This document shows positions 12,224-55,573 of a stretch of DNA of 64,000 nucleotides, piece by piece (position 1 is the first letter of the stretch; every line of letters starts with the position of its first letter). Origin of the DNA: Candidatus Binatia bacterium (GTDB lineage: Bacteria; Desulfobacterota; Binatia; Bin18); NCBI GenBank assembly GCA_050187625.1, contig JBFWXH010000020.1:15355-79354 (forward strand), read 5' to 3'. The notes beneath the pieces are model-generated. The model saw nothing but the letters and a program-made list of their open reading frames with translations, did not search any database and had not been told where the DNA came from. The position numbers and the translations under genes were made by a program.

Positions 12224-12707
12224 GCGCTCCTCCCGGAGGAAAGTTCTCGTGCCATGGCGAACGCTCGGACCAAAACCGCCGCGTCCGCTCTCCATGCGAG
12301 GTCTGTGTGTGGAAACCTAAACCAGCAGGCAGGATTCCGCTACCGGTCGCCCGACTTTTTACGACCAGGGTGAGGTCAGTTGCGCTCTGTCGTGCTTTGT
12401 ACCAGTCACAATTTAAGCCCTTAGTCACGTCAAATCCCCTCTCACTCAGGGAGAAAGACCCCATACTCGCCGTGGCGTGACTGAAGACACAAGGGTATTT
12501 CCTTACGTTGAGATCAGCGCGCGCGTTGCGATGCAGCGTAGGTAAAAGCTTGCGTCCGGCAACCTTTCTGCTATACCACTGACTTCCTTGATCGTGGTAC
12601 AAACGAAATGTTGATACGCGCCAAGAACACCCTACAAGAGGATTTCTTGGAACAGTTTGACACCACCAGCAAAGGAAGAACAGCCCCAAAGAAAAGGAGA
12701 ACAAACC

Positions 12708-18915: not shown

Positions 18916-20595
18916 TTACGCAGACGGTGCGACCATGGTCGCATACCCTTCAATGAAGGGGGATAAACTCTCCTTATCGACCTCAACGTTGATAATCGAC
19001 GGTTTCCCGTTGGCGGCCGCGCGTCTGATGGCTGGGAGGATTTCCTCTGGATCGGTGACCCTTTCTCCATACCCATCCCACATGGAGACCATTTTCTCGT
19101 AGGCACGCATGTGGTGCAGTTCGGTGTTGCATTGCCCCCTCGTAGCAATCTCATCTGGCCGAATGTATTGCTCTACCAAGCTGATCATTCCCCACCCTGA
19201 GTCATTGGAGATGACACACACCACAGGGATGCCCAGCCGCGCCATGGTATCCATCTCCATAGCATAGAACCCGAAGCTTCCGTCACCCGTATACCATAGC
19301 ACTGGCTTCCGGTTCGCGACCCAGGCTCCAACCACCTGGCCAGGTCCTGTCCCGATAGTCCCATTCGGCCCAGTCGCATGGATCTGCCCTGGACGTGTTG
19401 CGATCGCCGCACCTGTCATCCATACGCTGGCTTCACCACCGTCGATGATGAGGTTCCAGTCCCGCGCATCTTCCTCTAGGAATTTCGCCGCCTCGCATGC
19501 ACAGCGGGCCGGATGGATAGGACTCTTGCCGACATGATACGCCTCGGGGAGGGTAGCCGCTCCACTACGCCGGACTGCCCCAGTCCACGGGTCGCCCGTC
19601 TTTGGAGAACATTTGGTCTGGATCGATTCGAGGAGTTGACGCGTTACGGGTCCCGCTCCACCAACGATTCCGAGGTCGGCACGGAGGTTGAAACCAATCT
19701 GGCTTCTGTCAGTATGCACCTGAATGACCGTGGCATCCTTGGGAATTGCACGGCCCAATCGCAGTCGGTAATCAAACCGACAGCCCAGAGCCAACACCAC
19801 ATCAGCCTTCGAGAAGGCGCGAGTTTTCAACAACGGATTGTCTGATTCGTCGCCAAACAATCCACGGCACGCGCTTCCGGCGATACCCACCGGCATCTTC
19901 AAATAATCCGACAATGCAGCAATCGCCCCGGCATGCTTCCCCATGGACCATCGGGCTCCCTCATCGACGATCATTGCCGGACGTTGCGCATGTGCGAGGA
20001 TCTCGGCCGCCTCCTCGATTAGTTCCGCTTCTCCACTGGGCACCGCTTGGCTCAGGGAGTGAGCCGGAAAACGGACGCGCTCCTCCTCTACCTTCGCAAA
20101 CAGCAGATCCGTTGGTACCTCCAGGTAGACCGGCCCCGGGCTCGCCCCCATAGCCTGGCGAAAGGCCATGGATACATACTCCGGAATACGGACGGTGCTG
20201 GTAATTTTTCTGGCCCACTTACAGCACGACTCCATCAGGGTCAGGGTCGACATGTCCTGCAGATCACCCGCGTCGCGTTTACTCATCGCCACTGCACCGC
20301 CGATCTGCAGGAGTGGAATATTCATTGAGTCCGCTTCCATCATTCCCGCTGGCGTATTCCCGACCCCTGGCCCTGCGGTCGTCACCACAACGGCCATCTT
20401 TCCCGAGGCCCGCGTATAGGCAATCGCAGCATACACGGCCGAGCACTCATGACGCATATCGATAATCTCAATCCCCGCATCTCGCATCCCGTAAAAGACC
20501 GGCATGATATGCCCGCCAGATAAGACGAATGCTTTTTCCACACCTTCATTCACCAAGGCTTTCGCGACTAGTGCTCCTCCGTCGATTGCACCCAT
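18916..20595 (-). CDS. Thiamine-diphosphate-dependent enzyme (acetolactate synthase / 2-hydroxyacyl-CoA lyase / benzoylformate decarboxylase superfamily)
   Basis: N-terminal GGALVAKALVNEGVEKAFVLSGG. ThDP-binding motif GDGSFGF...VISND. Confidence 0.85.
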   Translation of the reverse strand: MGAIDGGALVAKALVNEGVEKAFVLSGGHIMPVFYGMRDAGIEIIDMRHECSAVYAAIAYTRASGKMAVVVTTAGPGVGNTPAGMMEADSMNIPLLQIGGAVAMSKRDAGDLQDMSTLTLMESCCKWARKITSTVRIPEYVSMAFRQAMGASPGPVYLEVPTDLLFAKVEEERVRFPAHSLSQAVPSGEAELIEEAAEILAHAQRPAMIVDEGARWSMGKHAGAIAALSDYLKMPVGIAGSACRGLFGDESDNPLLKTRAFSKADVVLALGCRFDYRLRLGRAIPKDATVIQVHTDRSQIGFNLRADLGIVGGAGPVTRQLLESIQTKCSPKTGDPWTGAVRRSGAATLPEAYHVGKSPIHPARCACEAAKFLEEDARDWNLIIDGGEASVWMTGAAIATRPGQIHATGPNGTIGTGPGQVVGAWVANRKPVLWYTGDGSFGFYAMEMDTMARLGIPVVCVISNDSGWGMISLVEQYIRPDEIATRGQCNTELHHMRAYEKMVSMWDGYGERVTDPEEILPAIRRAAANGKPSIINVEVDKESLSPFIEGYATMVAPSA

Positions 20596-21647: not shown

Positions 21648-22001
21648 CTATCTGCAGCTGTGCACAGTTCCGCGAACAACCCTGACTCCAGACCGGTGTT
21701 CAGAATGAATACTTCGATCTGAGAATATGCTGAGCAAGCCGACGAGGCCGATCAGCGTGAGGGCAAGCCATGAAGCACAATAGCTGCCCGAAACGTCAGT
21801 TAATAGCCCAAAGAGCAGCGGGCCTAATAGCATGAGGGGAACAGATAAAACTTGGACAACCGAAATCGCAAAGCCCGCTGACCCTGGTGTGGCAATTTCC
21901 GTCACCAGGGTGTGAAACAATACCGCCCAACTCTCCGACATCGACGTGGTGTCATGTAAGACACAGCAGCTTGACATCTGCCGCCGGTGCCCAGTAAACA
22001 A
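21648..22001 (-). pseudogene. Remnant of the C-terminal helices of an MFS transporter
   Basis: SVPLMLLGPLLFGLLTDVSGSYCASWLALTLIGLVGLL looks like the last 2-3 helices of an MFS protein. There is no upstream remainder. Confidence 0.35.
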
Positions 22002-22056
22002 CCTGAGCCTCTATGTGCTCACGCAAAATCAGCACAAGGCTAAGGAGGGATCACGT

Positions 22057-22953
22057 ATGGCGAAGAAAACGTGGATCGAAGTTGCGCTCAATGGCGCCTG
22101 GACGCGACGGTTGCAACCAAACATTCCGGTAACGGCTCAGGAGATCATCAACGAGGGCGTGGCCTGCGTCAGAGCCGGAGCCGCGGTGATCCATGCCCAT
22201 ACTCTGGACCCAGACACCGGTAAACAGAACAATAGCCTGGAGAATTGTATTGCTTTTATCGGCGGCATTCGCTCCCAGGTGGATGCCATCGTCTATCCCA
22301 CTGCCGCGCCTATTCCTTTGCCAGATGATTGGTACGCCCGTTATGCGACGACAATAGAACTGGTAAAACGGGGGTTGTGTGAATGGGGGTTCCTGGATCC
22401 GGGCTCATGTAATTTTTATCTCTCCGATACCAGTGGGCCATCGCTGTTTGGCGATAGCGGAGTGTACAGCAATCCCAACGGTGCGCTAGAGTTGGGCATT
22501 GAGCTGGCAGCCACGCATAAGTATCACCCGGCTTATGCATGTTACGAGCCGGGGTTCGTGCGTCAAGGAGCAACGTTACATCGCAAACAACCGGCGGCAC
22601 CCGTGCCGGTGTATCGCTTTATGTTCTCATCGGCCTTCACCTTTAGTTTTCCTCCGGAGCCCTGGGCGCTGGAGGCCTATGTGAAATTGGTAGATACCGT
22701 GGCCCCAGGGTCGCCATGGATGGCGGCAGGCTTGGCGGTGGATGTGCTCCCCCTAATCCCGACGATTGTTTCGTTAGGTGGACATGTGCGGGTTGGGCTT
22801 GAAGACGCCCCGTTCCAATCCTCGCGCAAGAATATCGAACTGGTAGATGCGGCCGTCAATGCGATTCAGAAGGCTGGAAGTGAACCGGCAACCGCCGCAG
22901 AGATCAGAGCGTCGTTGGCTGCCTACGAAATGCCGACGGCAAGTACAGCATAA
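22057..22953 (+). CDS. 3-keto-5-aminohexanoate cleavage enzyme family (BKACE / DUF849)
   Basis: ATG 22057 follows AAGGAGGGA. WIEVALNGAWTR...ITAQEI..EGVACVRAGAAVIHAHTLD matches the BKACE N-terminal TIM-barrel pattern. Confidence 0.75.
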   Translation: MAKKTWIEVALNGAWTRRLQPNIPVTAQEIINEGVACVRAGAAVIHAHTLDPDTGKQNNSLENCIAFIGGIRSQVDAIVYPTAAPIPLPDDWYARYATTIELVKRGLCEWGFLDPGSCNFYLSDTSGPSLFGDSGVYSNPNGALELGIELAATHKYHPAYACYEPGFVRQGATLHRKQPAAPVPVYRFMFSSAFTFSFPPEPWALEAYVKLVDTVAPGSPWMAAGLAVDVLPLIPTIVSLGGHVRVGLEDAPFQSSRKNIELVDAAVNAIQKAGSEPATAAEIRASLAAYEMPTASTA

Positions 22954-23365: not shown

Positions 23366-24556
23366 ATGAGTGGCTACACGATTATAGACGTCGATACCCA
23401 TGTTACGGAGACACCGGACGTGTGGACCAGTCGCGTCCCTGCGCGGATGCGTGACGCGGTACCGCACGTTGAGACTGACGCGCAAGGGCGACAATGGTGG
23501 GTTTTGGGGAATAATCGCCTTGCCAGTCCAGGGCTCAGCGCAACGGCCGGTGTCGGCGATATGAAGAACTGGCCAAAAACCTATGACGACATGCACCCTG
23601 GCGCCTATGACGCCAAGGCGCGGCTCAAGTACATGGATGAGATGGGCATTTGGGCGATGGTCATGTATCCCAACGTCGGCGGATTTGGCGCCCAGCAGTT
23701 TCTCAAATTGGGGGATCCTGAGCTGATGCTCGCGTGCGTGCAGGCGTACAATGACTGGCAAACGGAATGGGCCTCCGCCGACTCCCGCCGACTGCTACCG
23801 ACCACCTCGCTTCCATTCTGGGATGTCAACGCTGCGGTGCAGGAAGTGCGGCGCTGCGCCGCAATGGGGCATAAGAATATGCTGTTCACGGGCGAACCCC
23901 AATCTTTTGGGCAGCCTTTGCTGGGCGATCGCTCCTGGGACCCGCTCTGGGAAACAGCGGTAGAACTGGATCTGCCCATCAGTTTTCACGTCGGCTCCGG
24001 AAGCATGGACTTGGGGTTGCGGAAGGACAAAGTGGCAACCTATGGTCGTATGGCGACCTTTACTGACCTCTCGATCGAGATTCTCCTACGTAACGGCATC
24101 CAGGTGAGCGACCTCATCATGTCTGGAGTGTTGGCCCGCTATCCCAAGATCAAATTCGTGTCGGTTGAGAGCGGTGTCGGATGGATTCCGTTTGCCCTCG
24201 AAGCGCTCGATTATCAGTTCGTGGGCAACCGCGTACGAGAAGACCGACCAGACCTCGATCTGATGCCATCTGAGTATTTTGCACGCAATATCTATGCGTG
24301 TTACTGGTTCGAGCAAACTGCGCCGCGTCGGCTGCTCGACAAAGTCGGAGTGGATAATATTATGTTTGAGACGGACTTCCCGCACCCGACCTCGTTGTAC
24401 GGCGATGAGGTGCATGAACGGATCAGCAGTGGTCTGTCTGACTGTGAGGAATCGGTGCGACGCAAAATTCTCTGGGATAATGCGCAGCAGCTGTATAAGG
24501 TCGAAGGGCCAACCGCGAAGGATGAGGCGCAGCGGGCAGCGGCGGTCAGTGCGTGA
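23366..24556 (+). CDS. Amidohydrolase-2 family metal-dependent hydrolase/decarboxylase
   Basis: AAGGAGGGA RBS. IIDVDTHVTETPDVW start (D-x-H-x metal motif). PF04909-like layout. Confidence 0.8.
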   Translation: MSGYTIIDVDTHVTETPDVWTSRVPARMRDAVPHVETDAQGRQWWVLGNNRLASPGLSATAGVGDMKNWPKTYDDMHPGAYDAKARLKYMDEMGIWAMVMYPNVGGFGAQQFLKLGDPELMLACVQAYNDWQTEWASADSRRLLPTTSLPFWDVNAAVQEVRRCAAMGHKNMLFTGEPQSFGQPLLGDRSWDPLWETAVELDLPISFHVGSGSMDLGLRKDKVATYGRMATFTDLSIEILLRNGIQVSDLIMSGVLARYPKIKFVSVESGVGWIPFALEALDYQFVGNRVREDRPDLDLMPSEYFARNIYACYWFEQTAPRRLLDKVGVDNIMFETDFPHPTSLYGDEVHERISSGLSDCEESVRRKILWDNAQQLYKVEGPTAKDEAQRAAAVSA

Positions 24557-24707
24557 CGTCCAATGGTGGAAAAACAACTGATGATCAACCGGCTATCTCC
24601 CAAGCCGCTAAAAATGTGGCTGCCAAATGCCAACAGTCCATCATTGCGAGTTCTTCATAGCGCAGGAACTACGTGTCGAGGCAGAAACGAAGAGGAGGCC
24701 CCGATCC

Positions 24708-24788
24708 GTCATTCCCGCACAGGCGGGAATCCAGTGTTTTCCTCCTGGATTCCGGGTCGCGGCCTGCGGCCGTGCCCGGAATGGTCAT
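24708..24788. repeat. R1 palindromic MITE-like element (full copy)
   Basis: gtcattcccgcacaggcgggaatccag-tgttttcctc-ctggattccgggtcgcggcctgcggccgtgcccggaatggtcat. Confidence 0.6.
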
Positions 24789-24916
24789 GCATCTGCGCTG
24801 CACCCTTGACTATGAAAAGTCTGTAGGGGCGAGTAGCCGTTCGCCTCTACTTTCGGGGGGAATGACAGGATGCTACGAGCAACCGATGCGAGTTGAGGGT
24901 TTCGTTTCTGCAATGC

Positions 24917-24950
24917 GATTGCTTCGTCGCTCCTTGCTCCTCGCAATGAC
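24917..24950. repeat. R2 repeat, right arm only
   Basis: gattgcttcgtcgctccttgctcctcgcaatgac; compare 36971-37005. Confidence 0.5.
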
Positions 24951-24973
24951 AGTAATCGAAGGAGAATACGTCT

Positions 24974-25480
24974 ATGCCTTTTAGTGAAATTCATCACGTC
25001 GCGATCGCGGTCAGTGATATGGAGCGGTCGATAGCCTTCTACCGCGATATTCTTGGCTTTCGCAAAACCCTGGATATGCCACTTGACAGCCCCAGTCTGG
25101 ACCGACTGCTCCGCATGCACCCTGGGACAACCGGGCGCTCGGTTATTCTTCAGCAGGGGATGAGCACGGTCGGGGAAGTAGAACTTGTACAATTTTCTCC
25201 TGCCCCTACCACACCAACACCGGCAAAAGGCGCAGGTGGCCTCGGTGCGTTCTTATTGTCGTTTGCGGTCAAGGATGAAGAGTTAGATGATGTCTACCAA
25301 CGACTACTGAAAAAAGGCATCGCCTGCTACTCGGAGCCACAAGTCCTTGAGCTGCCAGGGTATGGGGCGACACGAGCGGTAATACTTGAGGACCCCGACG
25401 GTCAAATGATCGAACTGATTCAATTACCGTCGGCAGAAGAAATTCAGCGGGCACGGGATGCACAGCACGCCAATACATGA
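24974..25480 (+). CDS. VOC family (glyoxalase/bleomycin-resistance/dioxygenase fold) protein
   Basis: IHHVAIAVSDMERSIAFYRDILGF N-terminal VOC module. Confidence 0.75.
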   Translation: MPFSEIHHVAIAVSDMERSIAFYRDILGFRKTLDMPLDSPSLDRLLRMHPGTTGRSVILQQGMSTVGEVELVQFSPAPTTPTPAKGAGGLGAFLLSFAVKDEELDDVYQRLLKKGIACYSEPQVLELPGYGATRAVILEDPDGQMIELIQLPSAEEIQRARDAQHANT

Positions 25481-25586
25481 AAGCATCCGGGCTTAACAAA
25501 TACTGCGGATAGGCAATAGGAGCGTCCGCGAACAGACAGCATGAGCAGCGAAAAACCACCCACAGACAGAAAGGGTAGAGAACATT

Positions 25587-27224
25587 ATGGCGCAGTCTTT
25601 CCAATCCACGTCGGCAGCTAGTGCCAAGCCGATCGAACAGTTTGACGCAATTATTATCGGCGCCGGAATTTCCGGACTCTATCAGCTCTACCGTTTGCGC
25701 GAGCTGGGACTCTCGGTGCGGGTCTATGAGGCTGGCAGCGGTGTAGGTGGTACGTGGTATTGGAACCGTTATCCAGGCGCGCGCTTCGATTCCGAAAGCT
25801 ATTCCTATGGCTATTCGTTCTCGGAGGAACTGCTACAGGAGTGGGATTGGAAGGAGCATTTCTCCGGCCAGCCGGAGAATGAACGCTATCTCAATTATGT
25901 GGCGGACAAGTTCGACTTGCGCCGCGATATGCAATTCAATGCTCGGGTCAAATCAGCGAGCTACGACGAGCGCGAAAATCGCTGGCAGATCCAGACTGAA
26001 GATGGCCACCGCGCGCAGGCGCAATTCCTCATCACGGCAATCGGAGTCTTGTCGGCCCCGCAAATGCCCCAAATTGAAGGGCTTGAGAGCTACACAGGAG
26101 AGTGGTGTCACACTGGCTTGTGGCCAAAGAACCCGATCAACTTCGCCGGCAAACGCGTAGGAGTCATCGGTACCGGTGCGACGGCCGTTCAACTGATCAC
26201 GGAAATCGCCAAAGAAGTCGGTCATCTCACCGTCTTTCAGCGCACCGCGAATTATTGCGCACCCTTACATAATCGGCCGATTGATCCCGAGACCCAGAAA
26301 GCAATCAAAGCCAGCTATCCGGACATCTTCAAAAAATGCCGCGAAACGTTTGCCAGCTCGCTCCATCAATTCGATCCGCGCTCGGCTCTAGAAGTCTCGC
26401 CGGAAGAACGGCACGCCTTCTACGAGCAAATCTGGGCGGAACCCGGGTTCAGGAAATGGTTGGGTAATTTCCAGGACATCATGACGAACAAAGAAGCCAA
26501 CGAAACCTTCGCTGAGTTCGTGCGCAACAAAATTCGCGAGCGGGTTAAAAATCCAGTCGTCGCAGAAAAACTGGTTCCTAAGGATCACCCGTTCGGCTCC
26601 AAACGTGTCCCATTGGAGAGCGGCTATTACGAGGTCTACAACCAGGACAACGTCGAATTGGTTGACCTGCGCGAGACTCCGATAGAACGCATTACGCCCA
26701 CAGGCATCAAGACCAGCGATAAAGAGTACGAGTTTGATATCATCATCTTTGCCACCGGGTTTGACGCGGTGACTGGAGCTTTCAACCGGATTGATATCCG
26801 TGGTGTGGGCGGACAAGCGCTGAAGGACAAGTGGGCGGAGGGACCACGTACCTACCTCGGTATCCAGACCGTAGGGTTCCCCAATCTGTTCACGCTCGTC
26901 GGTCCTCATAATGGTGCTACGTTCTGCAACATTCCGCGCTGTAGCGAGCAGAATGTCGAATGGGTCACCAAATGTATCCGTTATATGCGGGAGCATAACC
27001 GTAAACGCATTGAAGCGACTCCCGACGCAGAGGCGGTATGGACCGCACACGTCGGCGACACGATTGCCAACTCGCTCTTGCTAGAGGCCAACTCCTGGTT
27101 CATGGGAGCGAATACTCCTGGGAAAAAACGCGCCTTTCTCATGTACGCGGGAGGTTCCCCCGCCTATCGGCAAAAGTGTGAGGAAGTAGCAGCCAAGGGA
27201 TATGAGGGGTTCGTGCTGCAATAA
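25587..27224 (+). CDS. Type-I Baeyer-Villiger monooxygenase (545 aa)
   Basis: [23 protein letters not shown], fingerprint variant YTGEWCHTGLWP, IGTGATAVQ. Confidence 0.9.
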   Translation: MAQSFQSTSAASAKPIEQFDAIIIGAGISGLYQLYRLRELGLSVRVYEAGSGVGGTWYWNRYPGARFDSESYSYGYSFSEELLQEWDWKEHFSGQPENERYLNYVADKFDLRRDMQFNARVKSASYDERENRWQIQTEDGHRAQAQFLITAIGVLSAPQMPQIEGLESYTGEWCHTGLWPKNPINFAGKRVGVIGTGATAVQLITEIAKEVGHLTVFQRTANYCAPLHNRPIDPETQKAIKASYPDIFKKCRETFASSLHQFDPRSALEVSPEERHAFYEQIWAEPGFRKWLGNFQDIMTNKEANETFAEFVRNKIRERVKNPVVAEKLVPKDHPFGSKRVPLESGYYEVYNQDNVELVDLRETPIERITPTGIKTSDKEYEFDIIIFATGFDAVTGAFNRIDIRGVGGQALKDKWAEGPRTYLGIQTVGFPNLFTLVGPHNGATFCNIPRCSEQNVEWVTKCIRYMREHNRKRIEATPDAEAVWTAHVGDTIANSLLLEANSWFMGANTPGKKRAFLMYAGGSPAYRQKCEEVAAKGYEGFVLQ

Positions 27225-27281
27225 GCGCGTTCCTTGAAAAGAGAAAAGAAACTCTCACCAAAAAGATCGAGGAGAACACCT

Positions 27282-27740
27282 ATGGCAACCGCCACCGCTG
27301 CTGAGACCACATCTTACGTCTTCGATGATCGCAATATCCGCTGGTATACCCTGGGGGATTTCAAGCACTTCGTCTTTGCTATGCTCGACGTCGATGTGCC
27401 AGGAAAGATTGTCGACTTCGTGCTCAAATTCCCCGCCAATGAGAAAATCTTTCTGCACCGCCACCTGGCGTTGACGAATACCTTGGTTGTCCAAGGGGAG
27501 CATCGTCTCTACGAACCGAATGGGAAACTCAAGGAGGTGCGTCCTGTTGGCAGCTACACCTCAAGTCCTCCAGGTGACCCGCATCAAGAGGGCGCAGGCG
27601 CTGGAGGTGGAGTAGTTTTCTACAGTGTACGAGGCAAGGACGGTGTCTTATTCGAAGTGCTTGATGACGATTTCAAGGTCATCGGGACGCTGACTCTAGA
27701 GGACTTCGCCAACGCCTACAAAGAACAGAAGGGCGCCTGA
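27282..27740 (+). CDS. Small cupin-like protein, paralogue 2 of 3
   Basis: ATG 27282 follows GAGGAGAA, 57 nt after the BVMO stop. LHRHLALTNTLVVQGEH, PPGDPHQEG, VLFEVLDDD align with 9405-9878. Confidence 0.6.
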   Translation: MATATAAETTSYVFDDRNIRWYTLGDFKHFVFAMLDVDVPGKIVDFVLKFPANEKIFLHRHLALTNTLVVQGEHRLYEPNGKLKEVRPVGSYTSSPPGDPHQEGAGAGGGVVFYSVRGKDGVLFEVLDDDFKVIGTLTLEDFANAYKEQKGA

Positions 27741-27817
27741 AGAAAAACCGGAATAAACATGAGCAGTCGCCTCAATAAGCAAGTAGGCGGACGTTTCATC
27801 AGCAAGGAACAACGAAC

Positions 27818-30244
27818 ATGGACGGACTCGAAGGAGTGAAAGTTCTCGAATTAGGGAACATGGTATCGGCTGCGCACGCAACGAAATTGCTGGCCGATCT
27901 CGGCGCGGATGTGGTGAAAGTCGAAGAGCCCACAGGTGATACTGCACGAGCACGCGGTCCGTTTCCTGGTGGCGTGATCGATCCAGAAAAGAGCGGCCTT
28001 TTTCTCTACCTGAATACCAACAAACGTAGCGTGGCACTGGACCTGAACCGCCAACGGGATGAACTCCGTCATCTCGTGTCGTGGGCTGACATTCTGATCC
28101 ACAACTACTCTCCTCGAGACATGGCTGCACGCAGCCTTGCCTACGAAACGTTTTCTCACATCAATCCTCGGCTGGTGATGTGTTCGATCACGCCCTTTGG
28201 CCTGACAGGACCACACAAAAACTATCATGCCTATGATCTCACCCTTGCGCATGCCGGGGGCTGGGCGTGGTTGAGCCCCGGCGCGTTAGAACATCCCGAG
28301 CTGCCGCCGCTCAAAGCCTTTGGCCAACAGTGTGGCTTTCAGGGTGGGCTCGCAGCCGCGACAGCGTCTCTCGGCGCTTATTATCGTGCGTTGTCGACTG
28401 GAACCGGTGAGCACATCGACCTTTCTGTCCAAGCCTTCATTGCCTCGTTCCTGGAGCAGGCAATTGTTTATTACAGCTACTTGGGGCGAGTCGCCTCGCG
28501 TTTGGGGCAGCGCTATATGTATCCGTGGGGCATGTATGAATGCCGAGATGGTCTTATTTTCATCGTGGTGCCAGAAGAAGACCAGTGGGAGCGTCTCGTA
28601 GAACTCATGGGTAAACCGGAATGGACGAGCTGGGACATTTTTTCTGGCCGTACCAATCGTATCAAGAATCAGGATGCGCTCAAAGTCTACGTGGAAGAAT
28701 GGACACGGCAATGGACTGTCGAGGATCTCTTCCATGCTTCCCAGGCTCGGCGATTGTGCGTGGCTCCAGTGTTGACGATGGCAGGCTTGGCTCGCCAGGA
28801 GCAGCTCCGCGTACGCCACTTCTTTGTCGAAGTCGACCATCCTCAGGCTGGCACTCTGACCCACATGGGGCCGCCGTACCAACTACAAGACCCATGGTGG
28901 CAGATCCGGCGACCAGCACCACTGCTCGGTCAACACAACGCTGAAATCAAGAATGAGACTAGAGGCTGGAAACTAGAGACGAGTTCCTCCACCCCTCAAG
29001 CCTCAAACCTCAAGCCTCAAGCCTCTCCAACCCAGCTTCCTCTGTACGGCATTCGTATCGCCGATTTTTCCTGGGTGTGGGCGGGCCCGTATTGTACGAT
29101 GCATCTCGCGTACCTCGGTGCCGAGGTCATCAAGATTGAATCCCAGGCCCATCTCGATTTGATGCGACGGTTGCCGATTGCCCCGCGCGGAGTCACGCCT
29201 GGATTCGATAGTTCTGGTCCATTCAACCAATGGAACCAGAGCAAGAAGAGCATCCAGGTGAATCTCAGCAAAGCTGAAGGAATCGCGCTGGCCAAAGAAC
29301 TGATTCAACAGTGTGACGTGGTGGTTGAGAACTTTGCCACCGGCGTGATGGATGCCTTTGGCTTGGGTTATGAAGAGCTAAAGAAACTGAAACCTGACCT
29401 CATTATGGTGTCAATCTCTGGCTATGGTCACACCGGTCCGCTCAAAGATTACATGGGATATGGACCAGCGATACCACCTCTGACCGGATTGTCGGCGTTA
29501 ACTGGCTATGCCGATGGTCCGCCACGAGAACTCGGTGTATCCATTGGCGATCCCAATGCCGGGATAACAGCGGCGGTGGCCATCTGTGCTGCGCTTGCGG
29601 CCCGCAAACGCACAGGACAGGGCCAATATATCGATGTCGCACTCTGGAGCGCTGCTGCGGTGTTAGCGGCGGAGGGGTGGATGGAATACACCATGAACGG
29701 CACCGAACCGGCACGCCAAGGCAACCGCGACGTCTGGATGGCGCCACATAACTGCTTTCGTTGTCTCGGCGAGGATACATGGGTCACGATTGCCTGTGGC
29801 ACGGAAGCAGAATGGCAGGCGCTGTGCCGCATAATGGAACACCCACAGTTGATTGATGACCCGCGTTTCCGCACCGCCCGTGACCGCAAAGCACACGAAG
29901 ACGAACTCGAACAACTGATCACGACATGGACCTCTCAACGTGATCGCTGGGCAATCACCCACAGCTTGCAAGCGGTTGGGGTCGCGGCATTTCCCTCGAT
30001 GAGTAGCAAAGACCTGGTAGAAGATACACAGCTGAACGAGCGCGGCTTTTTTGCGCGCCTTGCACATCCGGGAGTGGGGACGCAGACCCACACGGGGATC
30101 CCATGGACCCTGACCCATGCTCCAAATGGGGTCCAGTCCCCTGCGCCGTTGCTTGGTCAGCATACAGACGAAGTGCTGCGCCGCGTACTGGGCTATGAGG
30201 AGGAAAAGATCGCTCGGTTAAAAGAGCAGCAAGTGTTGTACTAA
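27818..30244 (+). CDS. Tandem-fused (two-module) family-III CoA-transferase, 808 aa
   Basis: Two CaiB/BaiF-type modules start at GVKVLELGNMVSAAHATKLLADLGADVVKVE and GIRIADFSWVWAGPYCTMHLAYLGAEVIKIE. The C-half has GDPNAG...RKRTGQGQYIDVAL. Confidence 0.85.
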   Translation: MDGLEGVKVLELGNMVSAAHATKLLADLGADVVKVEEPTGDTARARGPFPGGVIDPEKSGLFLYLNTNKRSVALDLNRQRDELRHLVSWADILIHNYSPRDMAARSLAYETFSHINPRLVMCSITPFGLTGPHKNYHAYDLTLAHAGGWAWLSPGALEHPELPPLKAFGQQCGFQGGLAAATASLGAYYRALSTGTGEHIDLSVQAFIASFLEQAIVYYSYLGRVASRLGQRYMYPWGMYECRDGLIFIVVPEEDQWERLVELMGKPEWTSWDIFSGRTNRIKNQDALKVYVEEWTRQWTVEDLFHASQARRLCVAPVLTMAGLARQEQLRVRHFFVEVDHPQAGTLTHMGPPYQLQDPWWQIRRPAPLLGQHNAEIKNETRGWKLETSSSTPQASNLKPQASPTQLPLYGIRIADFSWVWAGPYCTMHLAYLGAEVIKIESQAHLDLMRRLPIAPRGVTPGFDSSGPFNQWNQSKKSIQVNLSKAEGIALAKELIQQCDVVVENFATGVMDAFGLGYEELKKLKPDLIMVSISGYGHTGPLKDYMGYGPAIPPLTGLSALTGYADGPPRELGVSIGDPNAGITAAVAICAALAARKRTGQGQYIDVALWSAAAVLAAEGWMEYTMNGTEPARQGNRDVWMAPHNCFRCLGEDTWVTIACGTEAEWQALCRIMEHPQLIDDPRFRTARDRKAHEDELEQLITTWTSQRDRWAITHSLQAVGVAAFPSMSSKDLVEDTQLNERGFFARLAHPGVGTQTHTGIPWTLTHAPNGVQSPAPLLGQHTDEVLRRVLGYEEEKIARLKEQQVLY
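28994..29028 (+). repeat. Heptanucleotide tract (CCTCAAG-like x5) in the inter-module linker
   Basis: CCTCAAG CCTCAAA CCTCAAG CCTCAAG CCTCTCC, read directly from the sequence. Confidence 0.8.
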
Positions 30245-30455
30245 GGGGGCAGGCGAGTCTCAGGGTATAAGGTTCGCTCAGCACTATGAAGAAACCCTGT
30301 TGCTCTTGCCTAGTTGTGCCTTTTTCTTGTAGGAAATCTACTCTCGCGTAGCGCGGACGCTACAGAAACAAAGCCTTGGACTGGGGTACTGCCGTCAACT
30401 CGGAACAAGGCAGGCTGGACAAAATTTCATGGAGAGAGACAAAAGGAGGATTGAC

Positions 30456-32090
30456 ATGGCGAATGCTGAACAGAATACACCGACTGCCACGAATGGAGCT
30501 GGAACAGTCGAACAGTTTGACGCGATCGTGATTGGCGCTGGTGTGTCTGGCTTGTATCAACTGTACCGGCTGCGGGAGCTGGGGCTCAAGGTACGCTGCT
30601 TTGAGGATGGCAGCGGCGTGGGCGGGACCTGGTATTGGAACCGCTACCCAGGCTGTCGTTTTGATTCCGAGAGCGAAACCTACGGCTATTCGTGGTCGAA
30701 GGAACTGTTGCAGGAATGGAACTGGAAAGAACATTTCTCCGGCCAGCCGGAGAACGAACAATACCTGAATTATGTGGCGGACAAGTTCAATTTGCGTCCC
30801 AACATCCAATTCAATTCTCGGGTCGCCTCGGCGGTCTACGACGAGCAGGCGAACCTTTGGGACGTCCAGTTAGAGAATGGTCAGCGCGCCCGGGCGCAAT
30901 TCGTCGTCTCGGCGGCCGGCATCTTGTCCGCCCGGTACACACCACCATTTCCGGGGATCGATAGCTTCAAAGGCCAGTCGTTCCACACCTCGCGCTGGCC
31001 GAAGGAAAAAGTGGACTTCTCCGGCAAACGCGTGGCGTGTATCGGCACTGGCGCTACTGCTGTCCAACTCATTCCCATCGTCGCCAAAGAAGCTGGCCAT
31101 CTGACCGTTTTCCAACGGACCCCCAATTACTGCGCCCCATTGCGTAATGGGCTGGTTTCCGAGGAGACCCAAAAGCAGTGGAAAGCCAACTACGACGAAA
31201 TTCACAAACGTATTCGCGAAACGCCATTCGGCTTTATGCATAACTTCGACCCGCGCAATACTTTCGACGTCCCCAAGGAAGAACGGCTCGCGTTGTACGA
31301 AAAGTTGTGGGCACAGCCTGGGTTCACCAAATGGCTGAGCAATTTCCACGATATTATGACCAACCGTGAGGCCAACGAGGACTTCGCTGAATTCGTGCGC
31401 AACAAGATCCGCGCCCGCGTCAAGGATCCCGTGGTGGCGGAAAAGCTCTGCCCTAAGGACCATCCGTTCGGCTCCAAACGTATTCCCCTGGAGACTGAGT
31501 ATTACGAGACGTATAACCGGGATAACGTCTTGCTGGTGGACGTGCGTGAGACCCCGATCGAGGCCATCACTCCGAAAGGCGTCAAGACGAGTGACAAAGA
31601 GTACGAATTTGACGTCATCATCTACGCTACGGGGTTTGACGCTATCACCGGGGCATTGACCTCGATGGATATTCGCGGCGAAGGCGGGCAGACGCTTAAG
31701 GAAAAGTGGGACACGAATGGACTCAGCACGTACCTGGGCCTCCAGACTGCTGGGTTCCCGAATTTCTTCATCGCCACGAATGCCGCGTTCTGTAACTACA
31801 CGGTCTGCGCAGAGACCATTGTGGAATGGATTACTGATTGCATCCGTTACATTCGCGAGAAGGGCTTAAAACGCATTGCCCCTACCCTGGAAGCAGAGGA
31901 GGCCTGGGTGGAGCACGCGAACGAGTTGGCCTCGCACACGCTCTTGAGTGATGCGAAATCCTGGTTCATGGGGGCGAACATTCCCGGGAAGAAACGCAGC
32001 CTCCTCCTTTATGCCAATACTGCCACAGCCTATCGCGATAAGTGTTTGGAGGTCGCCGCCAACGGCTACGAGGGATTTGTGTTGCAGTAA
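30456..32090 (+). CDS. Type-I Baeyer-Villiger monooxygenase (~544 aa)
   Basis: ATG 30456 follows [53 protein letters not shown]. About 80% aa identity by eye to 5550-7178. Confidence 0.9.
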   Translation: MANAEQNTPTATNGAGTVEQFDAIVIGAGVSGLYQLYRLRELGLKVRCFEDGSGVGGTWYWNRYPGCRFDSESETYGYSWSKELLQEWNWKEHFSGQPENEQYLNYVADKFNLRPNIQFNSRVASAVYDEQANLWDVQLENGQRARAQFVVSAAGILSARYTPPFPGIDSFKGQSFHTSRWPKEKVDFSGKRVACIGTGATAVQLIPIVAKEAGHLTVFQRTPNYCAPLRNGLVSEETQKQWKANYDEIHKRIRETPFGFMHNFDPRNTFDVPKEERLALYEKLWAQPGFTKWLSNFHDIMTNREANEDFAEFVRNKIRARVKDPVVAEKLCPKDHPFGSKRIPLETEYYETYNRDNVLLVDVRETPIEAITPKGVKTSDKEYEFDVIIYATGFDAITGALTSMDIRGEGGQTLKEKWDTNGLSTYLGLQTAGFPNFFIATNAAFCNYTVCAETIVEWITDCIRYIREKGLKRIAPTLEAEEAWVEHANELASHTLLSDAKSWFMGANIPGKKRSLLLYANTATAYRDKCLEVAANGYEGFVLQ

Positions 32091-32177
32091 TACTGGCCTG
32101 TACGGCTGCCCTGCGTGCCCAGCGAACAGCGGGAGACCGGGAATATCGATCCCAACTTCAGGCGTTTACTGAGTAAG

Positions 32178-32303
32178 AATTCCCTCTCCCGCCGGGAGAG
32201 GGCGAGGGTGAGGGGATCTCACAAAGAATACTCTTTTTTCCCCTCATCCTGACCCCCTTCGACAAAACTCAGGATAGGCTTCTCCCGGACGGGAGAAGGA
32301 ACC
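32178..32303 (+). repeat. R3 MITE-like element (~125 bp), forward copy
   Basis: aattccctctcccgccgggagaggg...cccctcatcct...cttctcccggacgggagaaggaacc. The reverse complement of 55469-55573 aligns along its length apart from one ~25-bp indel. Confidence 0.6.
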
Positions 32304-32511
32304 GAAAACCGCCAGCGGGTAATCTGCCATCGACTGGGTCCTTCTTAGGGATTTCTTTCTTGTGTTTTCGGCGCAGACAGGTGCGGCAGCCTTGTCAACT
32401 TGTCCATGAGCATGGATAAAGGAGAAGCTACAGTTAAGACTCGCGGTTCTCCAAATATAGGAAAGAACCAGCGCGAGCATTGTAGAAAGGAAAGTAAAGG
32501 AGGAATTCGTT

Positions 32512-34944
32512 ATGCCCGGACTCGAAGGGGTACACGTTCTTGAACTTGGCCATATGGTTTCTGCCGCCTACGCCGCCAAGCTTATGGCTGACCTTGGCGC
32601 GGACGTCATCAAAATTGAAGAGCCCCACGGAGATCAAGCGCGTCAGCGCGGCCCGTTTCCCGGCGGAACACCGCACGCCGAGAAAAGCGGCCTCTTCCTC
32701 GCCCTGAACACGAACAAGCGCAGCGTGGCTCTGGATCTGCAACAATCCCAAGGGCAAACGCAGCTCCATGATCTGGTGGCAAAAGCAGATATTCTCATCC
32801 ATAATTACCCCCCAGCCGAAATGGCCGCACTGGGAATCAATTACGAGACGTTTCGTCAACTCAATCCCCGTTTAGTCATGTGCTCGATCACGCCCTTCGG
32901 GTTGACCGGCCCACATCGACAGTACCGTGCCTACGAAATCACTATGGCTCACGGCGGTGGGTGGGCCTGGCTGAGTCCTGGTGCCTCAGACCGTCCAGAT
33001 TTGCCACCGCTGAAAGCCTTTGGCCATCAAGCTGACTTTCAAGGTGCTCTGGCAGCGTCAGTTGTCACCTTGGGAGCATACTATCGGTCGCTGAATACGG
33101 GCTTAGGCGAACATATTGACCTGTCGGTACAGGCGTTCGTCGCTTCGTTTCTGGAGCAAAATTTCGTCTATTACAGCTATATGGGCAAAGTCGCCTCGCG
33201 CCTGGGGCAACGCCTGATCTATCCGTGGGGTATGTACCAGTGTCAGGATGGCCTGATTTTTCTGGTCAACGTTGAACAGGACCAATGGTTACGTCTGGTC
33301 GACTTGATGGGTGACCCGGAGTGGGCCAGTTGGGAAATTTTTAAAGACCAGTTCGCACGCGCAGAAAACTGGGATGTCATTAAGCCATACCTGGATGAAT
33401 GGATGCAGCAGTGGAAGGTCGAGGACTTGTGGCGAGCCGGGCAAGAACGCCGCATCTGTTTTTCCCCAGTGTTCACCCTGCCGCAACTGGCCACACAGGA
33501 GCAACTGCGCACACGCGACTTCTTTATCGAGGTGACTCATCCACAAGCCGGCAAACTCACGCATCTCGGCGCTCCGTACCGCCTGGGCAAATCGTGGCTA
33601 AAAATTCGCCGCCCCGCGCCCTTGCTTGGCGAATATAACGAAGGAATTACGACCGAGACGAAGGGGTGGAGACAAGAGACTGGTTCCTCCACCCCTCACC
33701 CCTCAAGCCTCAAGCCTCAAGCCTCTCCGTCCCATCTTCCCCTCGACGGCATTCGCGTCATCGACTTTAGCTGGGCCTGGGCCGGGCCGTTCTGCGCCCT
33801 CCACCTTGCCCATCTTGGCGCTGAAGTTATCAGAGTCGAGTCGCAGGTCCGTCCTGATCTCGGCCGCCGCGTCCCCATCTATCCTACCGGTATGCAACCA
33901 GGCTTGAACCGCTCTGGCTATTTCAATCAATGGCATCAGGGCAAGAAGAGTATCCTACTCAACTTGAGCAAACGCGAGGCCATTGACATTGTCAGGAAGC
34001 TGATTGCCCAGAGCGATGTGGTCGTCGAAAACTTTGCGACGGGAGTGATGGAACATCTCGGGTTAGGATACGAGGAGTTAAAGAAGCTCAAACCAGATAT
34101 CATCATGGCCTCGATCTCCGGCTACGGTCATACCGGACCGCAACAAAAATATATGGGTTATGGGCCGGCCATCGCGCCGATGACCGGGTTGTCTTCCCTC
34201 ACTGGCTATATTGGCGGTTCTCCGCAGGAGGTAGGGATTTCCTATGGTGATCCCAATGGTGGCATCGACGCTGCGTCCGCGATCTGTGCGGCGTTGGTGG
34301 CGCGCAAACGGACAGGACAAGGGCAGTACATCGATGTGTCATTGTGGGAGGGTGTGGCAGCGCTGATGCATGAAGGATGGATGGAGTACGCCATGAACGG
34401 CACCCAACCAGAGCGCATGGGCAATCGCGATCCTCTCATGTCGCCACACAACTGTTTCCGCTGTGCAGGCGACGATGAATGGGTCACCATCGCCTGTGGC
34501 ACGGACGAAGAGTGGCAGGCACTGTGCCAGGCCATTGGCCAACCGCAGCTTGCTGCTGATGCCCGCTTCCGTACCGCGCCAGACCGCAAAGCCCACGAAG
34601 ACGAATTAGAAGCGATCATCAGCGCGTGGACGTTGCCGCACGGAAAATGGGAGGTGACACGGACGTTACAAGCGGCGGGCGTTGCCGCGTTTCCGTCGAT
34701 GAACAGCAAAGATCTCGCAGACGATCCGCATCTCAATGAACGGGGTTTCTTCGCTCGGCTCCACCATGCCGAGGTGGGCGAGCAAACCCATACTGGCATT
34801 CCGTGGCGCTTGACCAATGCTCCGAACGGCGTTCGTGCGCCTGCGCCTCTGCTCGGGGCGGATACTGACACGGTCATGCACGAACTGTTGGGCTACTCTA
34901 GTGAGACCATCGCCAAATTGAAGGAAGAGCAGATATTGTATTAA
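32512..34944 (+). CDS. Tandem-fused (two-module) family-III CoA-transferase, 810 aa
   Basis: AAAGGAGGA RBS. Modules start at GVHVLELGHMVSAAYAAKLMADLGADVIKIE and GIRVIDFSWAWAGPFCALHLAHLGAEVIRVE. The C-half has GDPNGG...RKRTGQGQYIDVSL. Confidence 0.85.
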   Translation: MPGLEGVHVLELGHMVSAAYAAKLMADLGADVIKIEEPHGDQARQRGPFPGGTPHAEKSGLFLALNTNKRSVALDLQQSQGQTQLHDLVAKADILIHNYPPAEMAALGINYETFRQLNPRLVMCSITPFGLTGPHRQYRAYEITMAHGGGWAWLSPGASDRPDLPPLKAFGHQADFQGALAASVVTLGAYYRSLNTGLGEHIDLSVQAFVASFLEQNFVYYSYMGKVASRLGQRLIYPWGMYQCQDGLIFLVNVEQDQWLRLVDLMGDPEWASWEIFKDQFARAENWDVIKPYLDEWMQQWKVEDLWRAGQERRICFSPVFTLPQLATQEQLRTRDFFIEVTHPQAGKLTHLGAPYRLGKSWLKIRRPAPLLGEYNEGITTETKGWRQETGSSTPHPSSLKPQASPSHLPLDGIRVIDFSWAWAGPFCALHLAHLGAEVIRVESQVRPDLGRRVPIYPTGMQPGLNRSGYFNQWHQGKKSILLNLSKREAIDIVRKLIAQSDVVVENFATGVMEHLGLGYEELKKLKPDIIMASISGYGHTGPQQKYMGYGPAIAPMTGLSSLTGYIGGSPQEVGISYGDPNGGIDAASAICAALVARKRTGQGQYIDVSLWEGVAALMHEGWMEYAMNGTQPERMGNRDPLMSPHNCFRCAGDDEWVTIACGTDEEWQALCQAIGQPQLAADARFRTAPDRKAHEDELEAIISAWTLPHGKWEVTRTLQAAGVAAFPSMNSKDLADDPHLNERGFFARLHHAEVGEQTHTGIPWRLTNAPNGVRAPAPLLGADTDTVMHELLGYSSETIAKLKEEQILY
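33694..33728 (+). repeat. Heptanucleotide tract (CCTCAAG-like x5) in the inter-module linker
   Basis: CCTCACC CCTCAAG CCTCAAG CCTCAAG CCTCTCC. Confidence 0.8.
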
Positions 34945-34973
34945 AGTGCTGCCCGATTAGCGGTTACTACCAT

Positions 34974-35044
34974 GTCAGGTTGAGCGTAGCGAAACATCTC
35001 TCTTCAGCGTCCCAGGTGAGATTCGTTGCTTCGCTCAGAATGAC
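34974..35044. repeat. R2-variant palindromic element
   Basis: gtcaggttgagcgtagcgaaacatctc ... gagattcgttgcttcgctcagaatgac. Confidence 0.5.
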
Positions 35045-35096
35045 AGTATCGTGAGATCAGGCAATTGGGATAGGCTCTAAAAGGGAAGGATGGCAC

Positions 35097-35549
35097 ATGG
35101 ATATTACGAGCATCTACCATATCAACATTAACTGCACCAACTTCGAGCGCTCGCTCGCCTTCTACAAAATGTTAGGGTTCAAAGAGGTGGTCGATTTTGG
35201 TGAGGGCACAGGACCACAAATGGCGGGGCTGAAACTGCCTGGTGCGCGCGGAAGGGGGAAACTCCTGCAACTCGGCGACGATCCTCGTTCGTGTCATATT
35301 GACTTGATCGAGTGGCTCGATCCCAAAACCGAGGGGCGGCCATACGAACGCCTGACCAACGCAGGGATCGCGCGGGTCTGTCTGTATTCCAAGAACATCT
35401 GGAAAGATTACGAAGAACTCAAGAGTAAAGGAGTGGAGTTTTATACTGAGCCGATAACGATTAAATATCGCGGCGGACAGTCACTCATCGTCTGTTTCGA
35501 AGACCCAGACGGGACGGTGGTAGAGTTGACGCAGTTTCAGAAACAGTAG
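35097..35549 (+). CDS. VOC family protein
   Basis: IYHININCTNFERSLAFYKMLGF. 150 aa. Confidence 0.75.
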   Translation: MDITSIYHININCTNFERSLAFYKMLGFKEVVDFGEGTGPQMAGLKLPGARGRGKLLQLGDDPRSCHIDLIEWLDPKTEGRPYERLTNAGIARVCLYSKNIWKDYEELKSKGVEFYTEPITIKYRGGQSLIVCFEDPDGTVVELTQFQKQ

Positions 35550-35584
35550 ATGCATCACGCGACGACGCAAAAGGAGGAACGCTC

Positions 35585-36922
35585 ATGATCATTGGCTATT
35601 TCACCGAACGGCCGTACCGCTGGGTGCCAGAGGACGAGGTCCTCAGGAATGAGGCATTCTTTGCGGTGTCGAACAAATACTTTGACCGCGAGAAGGCAGC
35701 AGACGACTATAACTACTTCCTGGATGAGTACTGCTATGCCGAAGAGCTAGGTTTTGACGCCCTCATGCTCAACGAGCACCATGGCAATCCTTTCTGCATG
35801 GGCAGTGTGATGAACGTCGAGGCCTCGATCCTTGCGCGCATCACCAAGCGCGCGAAGATTGTGTTGATTGGCAACCCCCTGCCGGTCATCAAGCATCCCC
35901 TGCGTATGGCAGAAGAGCTAGCTGAGATCGATCTGATTTCCCGTGGACGCCTGGTGACAGGCTGGGTCCGTGGCGCTGGCAGCGAACAGTTCTTCAATAA
36001 TGCCAACCCTGCCTACAACCGGGAGTATTTCAACGAAGCGCACGATTTTATCATTCAGGCGTGGACGCGGCCCGGTCCGTGGCGCTACGAAGGCAAGCAT
36101 TTCCACTATCGTCATGTGAACCCCTGGGCACTGCCTTATCAGAAACCACACCCGCAGATGTGGATTCCTGGGGTACTGAGTCCAGAGACCGCCCAGTGGT
36201 GCGCGGAGCGCGGCTACCCGTACATGGGATTGGTCACTGCCCTGGGACCCACCTGCGATATGTGGGACTTCTACGCTGATACTGCCGCCAAGAATGGCTA
36301 TCAGGCTGGACCAGAGAACTTCGGTTATCTGATGAGTGTGTTCGTAGCCGACACCGATGAGAAAGCCCAAGAACTCGGCAAAGGCTTTATGTTTGGGGGA
36401 GGGCCAGGGGCTTTCTCACGACCAGAGCACACCGTACCGCCAGGATATAATTCGAAGGATGCGATTCGCCGTCTCGCCCGGATGCCGAGTGGTGGCTGGG
36501 TAGGTGTCAACGCCGAAAGGTTCAAAGCAGCGCAGGAAGGCAAGAGCGCCTACGACGGCAAGGATCTCAATGAGGTTCGTCGCAAGCTGATGGCAGCCTA
36601 TGACAAAGCGCAGAAAGACCATCTCATGATTGTCGGGTCGCCCAAGACAGTCATTGAGAAAGTTAAGACTATCATGCAGCTGCTCCGTGTCAGCATCCTC
36701 ACCGTCTTCCAGGTGCAAGGCACGGTCAGTAATGAGGATCGGAAAACCAGCATGCGCTTGTTCGCGCAGGAGGTCGCCCCGGCGATAAGAGAGTACGCCA
36801 AAGAGCTTGACCTGCCAGATCCGTTTCAACGCTTCCCCGGGTCGGTCAAGTTACAACCTGGCACGACGCGACTCCCGGTAGTAGATCGTGCACCACTTGC
36901 AACCATGAAGTTCGGCGCGTAA
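35585..36922 (+). CDS. LLM-class (luciferase-like) flavin-dependent oxidoreductase, 445 aa
   Basis: LGFDALMLNEHHGNPF...LIGNPLPVIKHPLRMAEELAEIDLISRGRL is typical of the luciferase-like TIM barrel. Confidence 0.75.
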   Translation: MIIGYFTERPYRWVPEDEVLRNEAFFAVSNKYFDREKAADDYNYFLDEYCYAEELGFDALMLNEHHGNPFCMGSVMNVEASILARITKRAKIVLIGNPLPVIKHPLRMAEELAEIDLISRGRLVTGWVRGAGSEQFFNNANPAYNREYFNEAHDFIIQAWTRPGPWRYEGKHFHYRHVNPWALPYQKPHPQMWIPGVLSPETAQWCAERGYPYMGLVTALGPTCDMWDFYADTAAKNGYQAGPENFGYLMSVFVADTDEKAQELGKGFMFGGGPGAFSRPEHTVPPGYNSKDAIRRLARMPSGGWVGVNAERFKAAQEGKSAYDGKDLNEVRRKLMAAYDKAQKDHLMIVGSPKTVIEKVKTIMQLLRVSILTVFQVQGTVSNEDRKTSMRLFAQEVAPAIREYAKELDLPDPFQRFPGSVKLQPGTTRLPVVDRAPLATMKFGA

Positions 36923-55468: not shown

Positions 55469-55573
55469 GGTTCCTTCTCCCTGAGGGAGAAGGACAGGAT
55501 GAGGGGAAAAGAGAGACATGGAGATCCTTATTTGATTCCCTCACCCTGGCCCTCTCCCGGCGGGAGAGGGAAT
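55469..55573 (-). repeat. R3 MITE-like element, inverted copy
   Basis: ggttccttctccctgagggagaagg...gatgaggggaaaag...ccctcaccctggccctctcccggcgggagagggaatt. Confidence 0.6.

Follow-up and report, generated by a model that had tools for sequence, protein, structure and literature searches.

Family III coenzyme A (CoA) transferases have their active sites at the interface of two interlocked subunits (PMC9813914), and two genes in the stretch of DNA shown above raise the question of what becomes of this arrangement when both subunits are carried by a single chain. The stretch, a window of 64,000 nucleotides from contig JBFWXH010000020.1 of a Candidatus Binatia bacterium (all coordinates below are window positions), holds on its + strand two open reading frames (ORFs), at 27818–30244 and 32512–34944, which encode proteins of 808 and 810 amino acids (aa). 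These paralogues, called here protein 1 and protein 2, are 68% identical to each other. The homodimeric enzymes Frc, YfdW, YfdE, SUGCT, CaiB and Mct resemble them in fold, in the location of the catalytic Asp and in a presumed anhydride/aspartyl-CoA mechanism. However, those enzymes consist of ~400-aa chains that form symmetric interlocked dimers with two identical sites, whereas the modules of proteins 1 and 2 are divergent and covalently joined.

The sole Pfam family found in the two proteins was PF02515 (CoA_transf_3), which matched each of them in two stretches, with total scores of 680 bits for protein 1 and 700 bits for protein 2 (cut-off 23.3). The best of these stretches spans profile positions 1–366 of 366, which places the proteins in family III. 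The profile alignment recovered both modules of both proteins, in agreement with the preliminary description of this locus, which had proposed that each ~810-aa chain carries two complete CaiB/BaiF-type modules joined by a Pro/Ser/Gln linker. The linker was found as well, as an in-frame, weakly conserved Ser/Thr/Pro/Gln stretch at residues ~391–408 of protein 1 (STPQASNLKPQASPTQLP; 28988–29041, + strand), and in the structural model described below it has predicted local distance difference test (pLDDT) values of 51–68 and no secondary structure. It separates an N-module (residues 1–390; 27818–28987, + strand) from a C-module (residues 409–808; 29042–30241, + strand). The inter-module spacer, measured between the conserved anchors His373 and Pro408 of protein 1, is longer than the linker part and comprises 34 aa; between the same anchors, it ranges family-wide from 13 to 121 aa, with a median of 30. 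The N- and C-halves within each protein are only 27–28% identical, and the internal duplication is therefore ancient.

In other bacteria, split pairs of such genes occur with overlapping stop and start codons, and one could imagine that the long ORFs are artefacts, in which a frameshift from sequencing or assembly has fused two neighbouring genes within the linker. The chance of this is negligible. Logan contigs from two landfill-metagenome runs cover 27700–30578 and 32189–35000 with 0 differences and 0 gaps, and they show no stop or frameshift in the linker, which the preliminary description had singled out for re-inspection; these are assembled contigs and not raw reads, probably derive from the source samples, and are weak evidence when taken alone. 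Comparison with homologues gives stronger evidence for the fusion. Among database proteins, the 120 closest to protein 1 (66–84% identity) are about 800–830 aa long, except for four truncated entries (703–748 aa), and nearly all of them align across 100% of the query. For a marine homologue of 51% identity, 120 relatives are likewise full-length, at about 790–830 aa, and of the 150 best representatives from a library clustered at the 50% level, 138 are full-length two-module proteins, at identities down to ~34%. A survey of two-module members had also been proposed at the outset; thousands of fused homologues are present in the sequence databases. Both proteins and more than 240 independent homologues hold one frame through linkers of differing length. 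On the basis of the gap-free contigs and of full-length homologues from many independent assemblies, we rejected an assembly or frameshift artefact, which is ruled out.

We then asked which enzymes the individual modules resemble. The best PDB match of the C-module of protein 1 is chain B of the benzylsuccinate CoA-transferase 9fn0 (4e-72), and for the N-module, chain A of that entry (2.5e-40) and 4ed9 are about equally good matches. The identities are reciprocal: for the N-module they are 31.8% with chain A and 27.1% with chain B, for the C-module 35.4% with chain B and 27.5% with chain A. A neighbour-joining tree was built from 32 halves of each type together with both chains of 9fn0, SUGCT, YfdE and 4ed9. 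It united the N-halves and chain A in 97 of 100 bootstraps, and the C-halves and chain B in 94 of 100. The homodimeric SUGCT, YfdE and 4ed9 fell outside both module groups. This grouping indicates a single-chain alpha-beta arrangement of the BbsE/BbsF type, in which the N-module is of the alpha or BbsE type and the C-module, of the beta or BbsF type, is the presumed catalytic one. Proteins 1 and 2 are thus probably fused alpha-beta forms of a BbsEF-type heteromeric family III CoA-transferase, judging from their sequences.

BbsEF, the succinyl-CoA:(R)-benzylsuccinate CoA-transferase of PDB entries 9fn0, 9fol and 9fun (released in December 2025), resembles proteins 1 and 2 in combining two different family III module types. 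It is made of two separate polypeptides, however, whereas proteins 1 and 2 each consist of one ORF that runs through the linker, and its modules are merely ~32–35% identical to theirs. The settings also differ, with BbsEF acting in anaerobic toluene degradation and proteins 1 and 2 lying in an aerobic, oxygenase-rich context; neighbourhood annotation revealed no bbs or bss genes nearby. A literature search found no paper describing the 9fn0 BbsEF structure. SmtAB and the phthalate and naphthyl-2-methylsuccinate CoA-transferases are further heteromeric enzymes.

The catalytic residue of Frc is Asp169. The segments of interest here read QCGFQG (residues 171–176) and GDPNAG (residues 577–582) in protein 1, and QADFQG (residues 173–178) and GDPNGG (residues 579–584) in protein 2. 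In HMMER pairwise alignments, Gly173 of protein 1 (codon GGC, 28334–28336, + strand) lies opposite the Asp of 4ed9, YfdE and SUGCT, and Asp578 (codon GAT, 29549–29551, + strand) is paired with Asp178 of 9fn0 chain B and the Asp of SUGCT. Aligning all halves together with the PDB sequences by MAFFT placed Gly173, Asp578, Asp175 of protein 2 (codon GAC, 33034–33036, + strand), Asp580 of protein 2 (codon GAT, 34249–34251, + strand), Asp178 of chain B and the Asp of SUGCT in one column. The number 178 was counted from the pairwise alignment and confirmed in the joint one. PDB entry 9fol, which holds the same enzyme as 9fn0, is titled 'D178-CoA adduct', and Asp578, which aligns with this residue, therefore matches a nucleophile that has been observed by crystallography to carry CoA. 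In the catalytic column, chain A of the 9fn0 structure has a Tyr and, like the N-module of protein 1, is devoid of the catalytic Asp; the Asp is thus found in one chain type only in BbsEF, whereas protein 2 has it in both modules.

These alignments agree with what had been read by eye from the sequence: HMMER and MAFFT give the same column as the manual alignment of the halves, both C-terminal halves carry the canonical Asp (Asp578 and Asp580, the predicted nucleophiles), the N-half of protein 1 has Gly in its place and the N-half of protein 2 keeps the Asp. We also looked for an Asp of the N-half of protein 1 at the catalytic position, but found Gly173 there, with no Asp or Glu within ~10 residues of it.

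In order to see how far this asymmetry extends, the catalytic position was read in larger sets of homologues, and the C-module residue equivalent to Asp578 was kept in 121 of 121, 141 of 141 and 139 of 140 sequences in three sets. The 121 are close homologues; their N-module position holds Asp in 102 cases, Gly in 9, Glu in 9 and Asn in 1. In a marine gammaproteobacterial clade (~50% identity, n = 82), the C-module Asp is present in 82 of 82 proteins and the N-module position is occupied by Ala (52), Gly (16), Ser (7) and others, but never by Asp. The set of 140 diverse two-module proteins consists of 138 diverse representatives plus proteins 1 and 2, and here the N-module position holds Glu (30), Asp (21), Gln (17), Tyr (15), Ser (13), His (10), Gly (8), Ala (8) and others. 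The Asp is confined to the beta-type module in protein 1 and in 119 of the 140; protein 2, with Asp in both modules, is an exception. The only protein of this set that lacks the C-module Asp, P0383 (803 aa), is a reverse-order fusion in which the Asp-bearing beta-type module (SYPDP, Asp) is N-terminal and the Asp-less module C-terminal, and fusion has therefore occurred in both orders.

The Asp asymmetry is thus a rule of the two-module family and not a quirk of one paralogue. The preliminary description had assigned one competent and one degenerate site to a single paralogue; Gly173 of protein 1 bears out the degenerate site, but the feature is not specific to that paralogue, with N-module Asp in merely 21 of 140 proteins. 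Its broader proposal, a covalent pseudo-heterodimer with non-equivalent sites, is the best reading of the domains, alignments, census and tree taken together. Within the group of protein 1 orthologues (at least 76% identity), the motif QQC_FQGG is invariant and its central residue is Asp in 25 proteins, Gly in 8, Glu in 7 and Asn in 1; since position 173 varies inside an invariant motif, the nucleophile would seem to be dispensable in this lineage. The protein-2-like group has Asp (77), Glu (2) or Gly (1) at the same position. Mean column conservation is 0.47 for the N-module versus 0.51 for the C-module, and the N-module retains the VExPxGDxxR, N..KRS and FG..GP motifs; what it specifically lacks, besides the Asp, are the AGP loop and the ENF motif. 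From these patterns, it does not appear to be decaying.

A homologue in a Myxococcota metagenome-assembled genome (CBDFGR010000002.1; L016:9950–12400) has Asn at the N-module Asp position and an in-frame stop at a conserved Trp (PEW to PE*), which is either a long-read assembly error or the mark of a pseudogene.

An AlphaFold2 model of protein 1, built with a 141-sequence alignment, has a mean pLDDT of 93.3 and a predicted template modelling score (pTM) of 0.94, with the linker as its sole uncertain part. The pTM value over 808 residues indicates that the model is confident on the relative placement of the halves. When compared with PDB entries by Foldseek, the C-module superposes on chains B and D of 9fn0 with a TMt of 0.96 and a root-mean-square deviation of 1.6 Å, and the N-module on chain A with a TMt of 0.86. 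Neither the sequence searches nor Foldseek returned a two-module chain among the PDB matches, and the Foldseek matches were all ~400-aa chains. Each half of the model adopts the open-ring conformation of interlocked dimers. An intramolecular interlocked pseudo-dimer predicts a model of this kind and is supported indirectly by its pTM; the rings would thread each other in it.

In family III enzymes, the Asp attacks the donor thioester, giving an acyl-aspartyl anhydride and next a beta-aspartyl-CoA thioester, from which CoA is passed to the acceptor acid (PMC9813914). By analogy, the ring-shaped N- and C-modules of proteins 1 and 2 would pack as an interlocked dimer with two non-identical interface pockets. 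In one of these, Asp578 of protein 1 or Asp580 of protein 2 would attack the donor acyl-CoA to form the anhydride and then beta-aspartyl-CoA, and CoA would finally be passed from this C-module Asp to an acceptor carboxylic acid. The donor could be succinyl-CoA or a similar dicarboxyl-CoA; this guess follows from the nearest relatives, all of this kind: BbsF, SUGCT and two NCBIfam models, succinate-glutarate and succinyl-CoA:mesaconate. The N-module would act as the alpha-type partner, supplying the partner half of the catalytic site as well as the second pocket; it is conserved, retains several motifs of the CoA-binding type and would not need the nucleophilic Asp. With Gly173, the second pocket of protein 1 should be incapable of Asp chemistry and may be a structural or ligand-binding remnant. 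In protein 2 the second pocket keeps Asp175, but the other hallmark motifs are gone and its competence is doubtful.

Several points weigh against a fused BbsEF-type enzyme with one working site. We take chain A of 9fn0 to be BbsE and chain B to be BbsF on the strength of the subunit lengths and not of the PDB record. No NCBIfam equivalog reaches its cut-off when the two proteins are searched, the scores being far below, and both donor and acceptor are thus guesses. Baeyer-Villiger monooxygenase genes, which lie next to both transferase genes here (see below), are adjacent in only some of the related loci. Protein 2 and about 85% of its clade keep the N-module Asp, and a second active site is possible there; the conserved flanks of position 173 and the conserved CoA-motif residues also show that the N-pocket is under selection.

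Taken further, the last point leads to a different scheme, in which both pockets are catalytic wherever the N-module Asp is kept, as in protein 2, and protein 1 is a recent derivative that has lost one site. The Asp is indeed present in 77 of 80 protein-2-like proteins and in 102 of the 121 close homologues, within a conserved Q-[AC]-D-F-Q-G segment and together with conserved CoA-type motifs M2, M3 and M5. Family-wide, however, it occurs in merely 15% of the N-modules, and never in the sister clade; the N-modules of proteins 1 and 2 are without the AGP and ENF motifs that their own C-modules retain; and in the protein 1 group the residue is freely swapped for Gly, Glu or Asn. We thus regard two catalytic pockets as unlikely. 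A similarly low probability attaches to the evolutionary form of this idea, that the N-module of the Binatia clade has kept or regained a working Asp and that protein-2-type enzymes may be two-site, two-specificity CoA-transferases on one chain. Were it true, such enzymes could, for example, couple two different acid/acyl-CoA exchanges, and the protein 1 group would have been caught in the act of losing or retuning a site, so that the N-pocket would be functional and evolvable and not a fossil.

The tandem layout had been presumed to be uncharacterised, but this is contradicted by DddD, a studied tandem-CaiB enzyme (PMC7174347, PMC4437653). In Endozoicomonas acroporae, DddD carries two tandem CaiB domains at residues 1–416 and 439–821 (PMC7174347), and this dimethylsulfoniopropionate (DMSP) CoA-transferase/lyase depends on one catalytic aspartate (PMC4437653). 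Judged by its published layout, DddD, of ~820–840 aa, shares with proteins 1 and 2 the design of a single ~800–840-aa chain with two tandem CaiB-type domains. The UniProt accession given for DddD in PMC5395668 is A6W2K8. Its essential residue is probably Asp602, in the C-terminal domain, which fits the geometry described here. Besides DddD, a literature search found no paper on fused family III enzymes.

Proteins 1 and 2 could accordingly be imagined as DddD-like bifunctional CoA-transferase/lyases, in which the C-module carries out CoA transfer and an elimination, possibly aided by the N-module, follows. DddD offers a precedent in its layout, its one required catalytic Asp and its lyase activity (PMC7174347, PMC4437653), and the authors of a SAR202 genome paper suggested that DddD-like CoA-transferases beside flavin monooxygenases may hold new lyase functions (PMC5395668). 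DddD acts on DMSP within a ddd operon, however, and such a context is not seen around proteins 1 and 2: no ddd set (transporter, dddB/dddC-type dehydrogenases, LysR regulator) occurs in the window or in four related loci, where the Pfam-annotated neighbours include no BCCT transporter and no dddB-/dddC-like pair. The name 'DddD' was also absent from the homologue matches and from the cluster names of 10 representatives of 830–850 aa. Moreover, neighbouring enoyl-CoA hydratase genes could supply hydration or elimination chemistry. We regard a lyase of this kind as quite improbable. A racemase (MCR-like) or intramolecular Mct-like role was set aside, those PDB relatives being much more distant.

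Fused and split forms of the same type both occur in cultured bacteria. The Ti plasmid of Agrobacterium larrymoorei carries overlapping split genes (WP_084631752.1 and WP_027676446.1) with Glu and then Asp at the catalytic positions, while a plasmid of Variovorax sp. SRS16 carries a fused gene (WP_162571376.1, 847 aa) with Tyr then Asp and, two genes downstream, a split pair with Phe then Asp. As in protein 1, the order is alpha then beta and the Asp is in the second module only. These genes, which are uncharacterised and only ~30–38% identical to proteins 1 and 2, adjoin enoyl-CoA hydratase or MaoC genes. The Variovorax operon (plasmid 3, NZ_LR594668.1 266418–276823) comprises the fused CoA-transferase, an enoyl-CoA hydratase, the split pair, which is 40–45% identical to the 9fn0 chains, and a thiolase; it offers a culturable system where the fused and split forms could be compared.

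The tandem-CaiB architecture (DddD) and its split equivalent (BbsEF) were already known, fused homologues are widespread, and no new kind of enzyme is revealed by this locus. The present analysis contributes the alpha-beta assignment of the modules, a count of the nucleophile across the family and the observation that, among relatives of protein 1, residue 173 toggles. Proteins 1 and 2 are further uncharacterised fused CoA-transferases that are caught by no named family model, and the analysis provides an annotation rule for a large and mostly unnamed group of ~800-aa 'CoA transferases', as alpha-beta fusions of the BbsEF type with an obligatory C-module nucleophile. Binatia, Chloroflexota and marine Gammaproteobacteria, all of which have many oxygenase genes, are rich in such proteins. 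The group is also a test case for the way in which an obligate interlocked dimer copes with fusion and fission of its genes and with losing one of its active sites.

The genes around proteins 1 and 2 give an indication of their role. Upstream of protein 1 lies a Baeyer-Villiger-type flavin monooxygenase gene (25587–27224, + strand; Pfam FMO-like and Pyr_redox_3), followed by a small cupin-like ORF (27234–27740, + strand) with a weak Cupin_7 match below the Pfam cut-off; a second monooxygenase gene of the same type (30429–32090, + strand; Pfam FMO-like) precedes protein 2. The two monooxygenases are 65% identical and, as with the 68% identity of the transferases, their tandem arrangement suggests a duplicated cassette: the monooxygenase and CoA-transferase pairs at 25587–30244 and 30429–34944 look like the products of an old duplication. 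The cupin-like ORF is present in the first cassette only, and homologues of it (69–73% identity) are found near the orthologues in the related loci L009 and L012. We note that apparent joints and mismatch clusters at 30602–31997 in the Logan comparison arise where a contig belonging to the upstream monooxygenase paralogue maps onto the second copy; structural variation or rearrangement at 30824–31997 was rejected in favour of this cross-mapping.

In all, the 64 kb contain four Baeyer-Villiger/FMO-type monooxygenase paralogues (12657–14537, 25587–27224, 30429–32090 and 44853–46781), an Abhydrolase_3 esterase (14670–15632), a BKACE enzyme (21946–22953), a thiamine diphosphate (ThDP) enzyme (18916–20595) and two luciferase-like monooxygenases. 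Pfam annotation also places glyoxalase-fold proteins, luciferase-like monooxygenases, an Amidohydro_2 protein and a short-chain dehydrogenase near proteins 1 and 2. An oxygenase-rich region of this kind is expected of Binatia-like genomes. An enoyl-CoA hydratase gene (ECH_1) lies directly downstream of the orthologue in two related loci (L028 and L031/L032) and nearby in L029, and genes for acyl-CoA dehydrogenases, Amidohydro_2 proteins, short-chain dehydrogenases, MaoC-like proteins, luciferase-like monooxygenases and flavin monooxygenases recur beside the orthologues.

From this context, the fused CoA-transferases would activate acids released by the adjacent Baeyer-Villiger monooxygenases and hydrolases, and the activated products would then pass to enoyl-CoA hydratase and acyl-CoA dehydrogenase steps. 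Their likely role is the ATP-free activation of acids made by oxygenases and hydrolases for beta-oxidation-like processing. The same role was proposed for the CaiB/BaiF expansions beside flavin monooxygenases in SAR202, where such CoA-transferases would feed recalcitrant organic acids into beta-oxidation without ATP cost (PMC5395668).

Some minor features of the window were also recorded. Rfam gave no match in 24000–36000. A G-rich intergenic repeat, GGGAGAGGGnnAGGGTGAGGGG, occurs in three copies, versus 0.01 expected, at 32194–32215, 55485–55506 (+) and 55537–55558 (-); one copy lies in the 421-nt spacer upstream of protein 2 and the other two, around 55.5 kb, are inverted relative to each other. 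This repeat is probably a REP-like (repetitive extragenic palindromic) element. The ORF at 43804–44691 matches only domain 3 of the type I restriction enzyme R subunit and may be a fragment or the remnant of a defence locus, and the region at 40–42 kb has a lower GC content (0.49).

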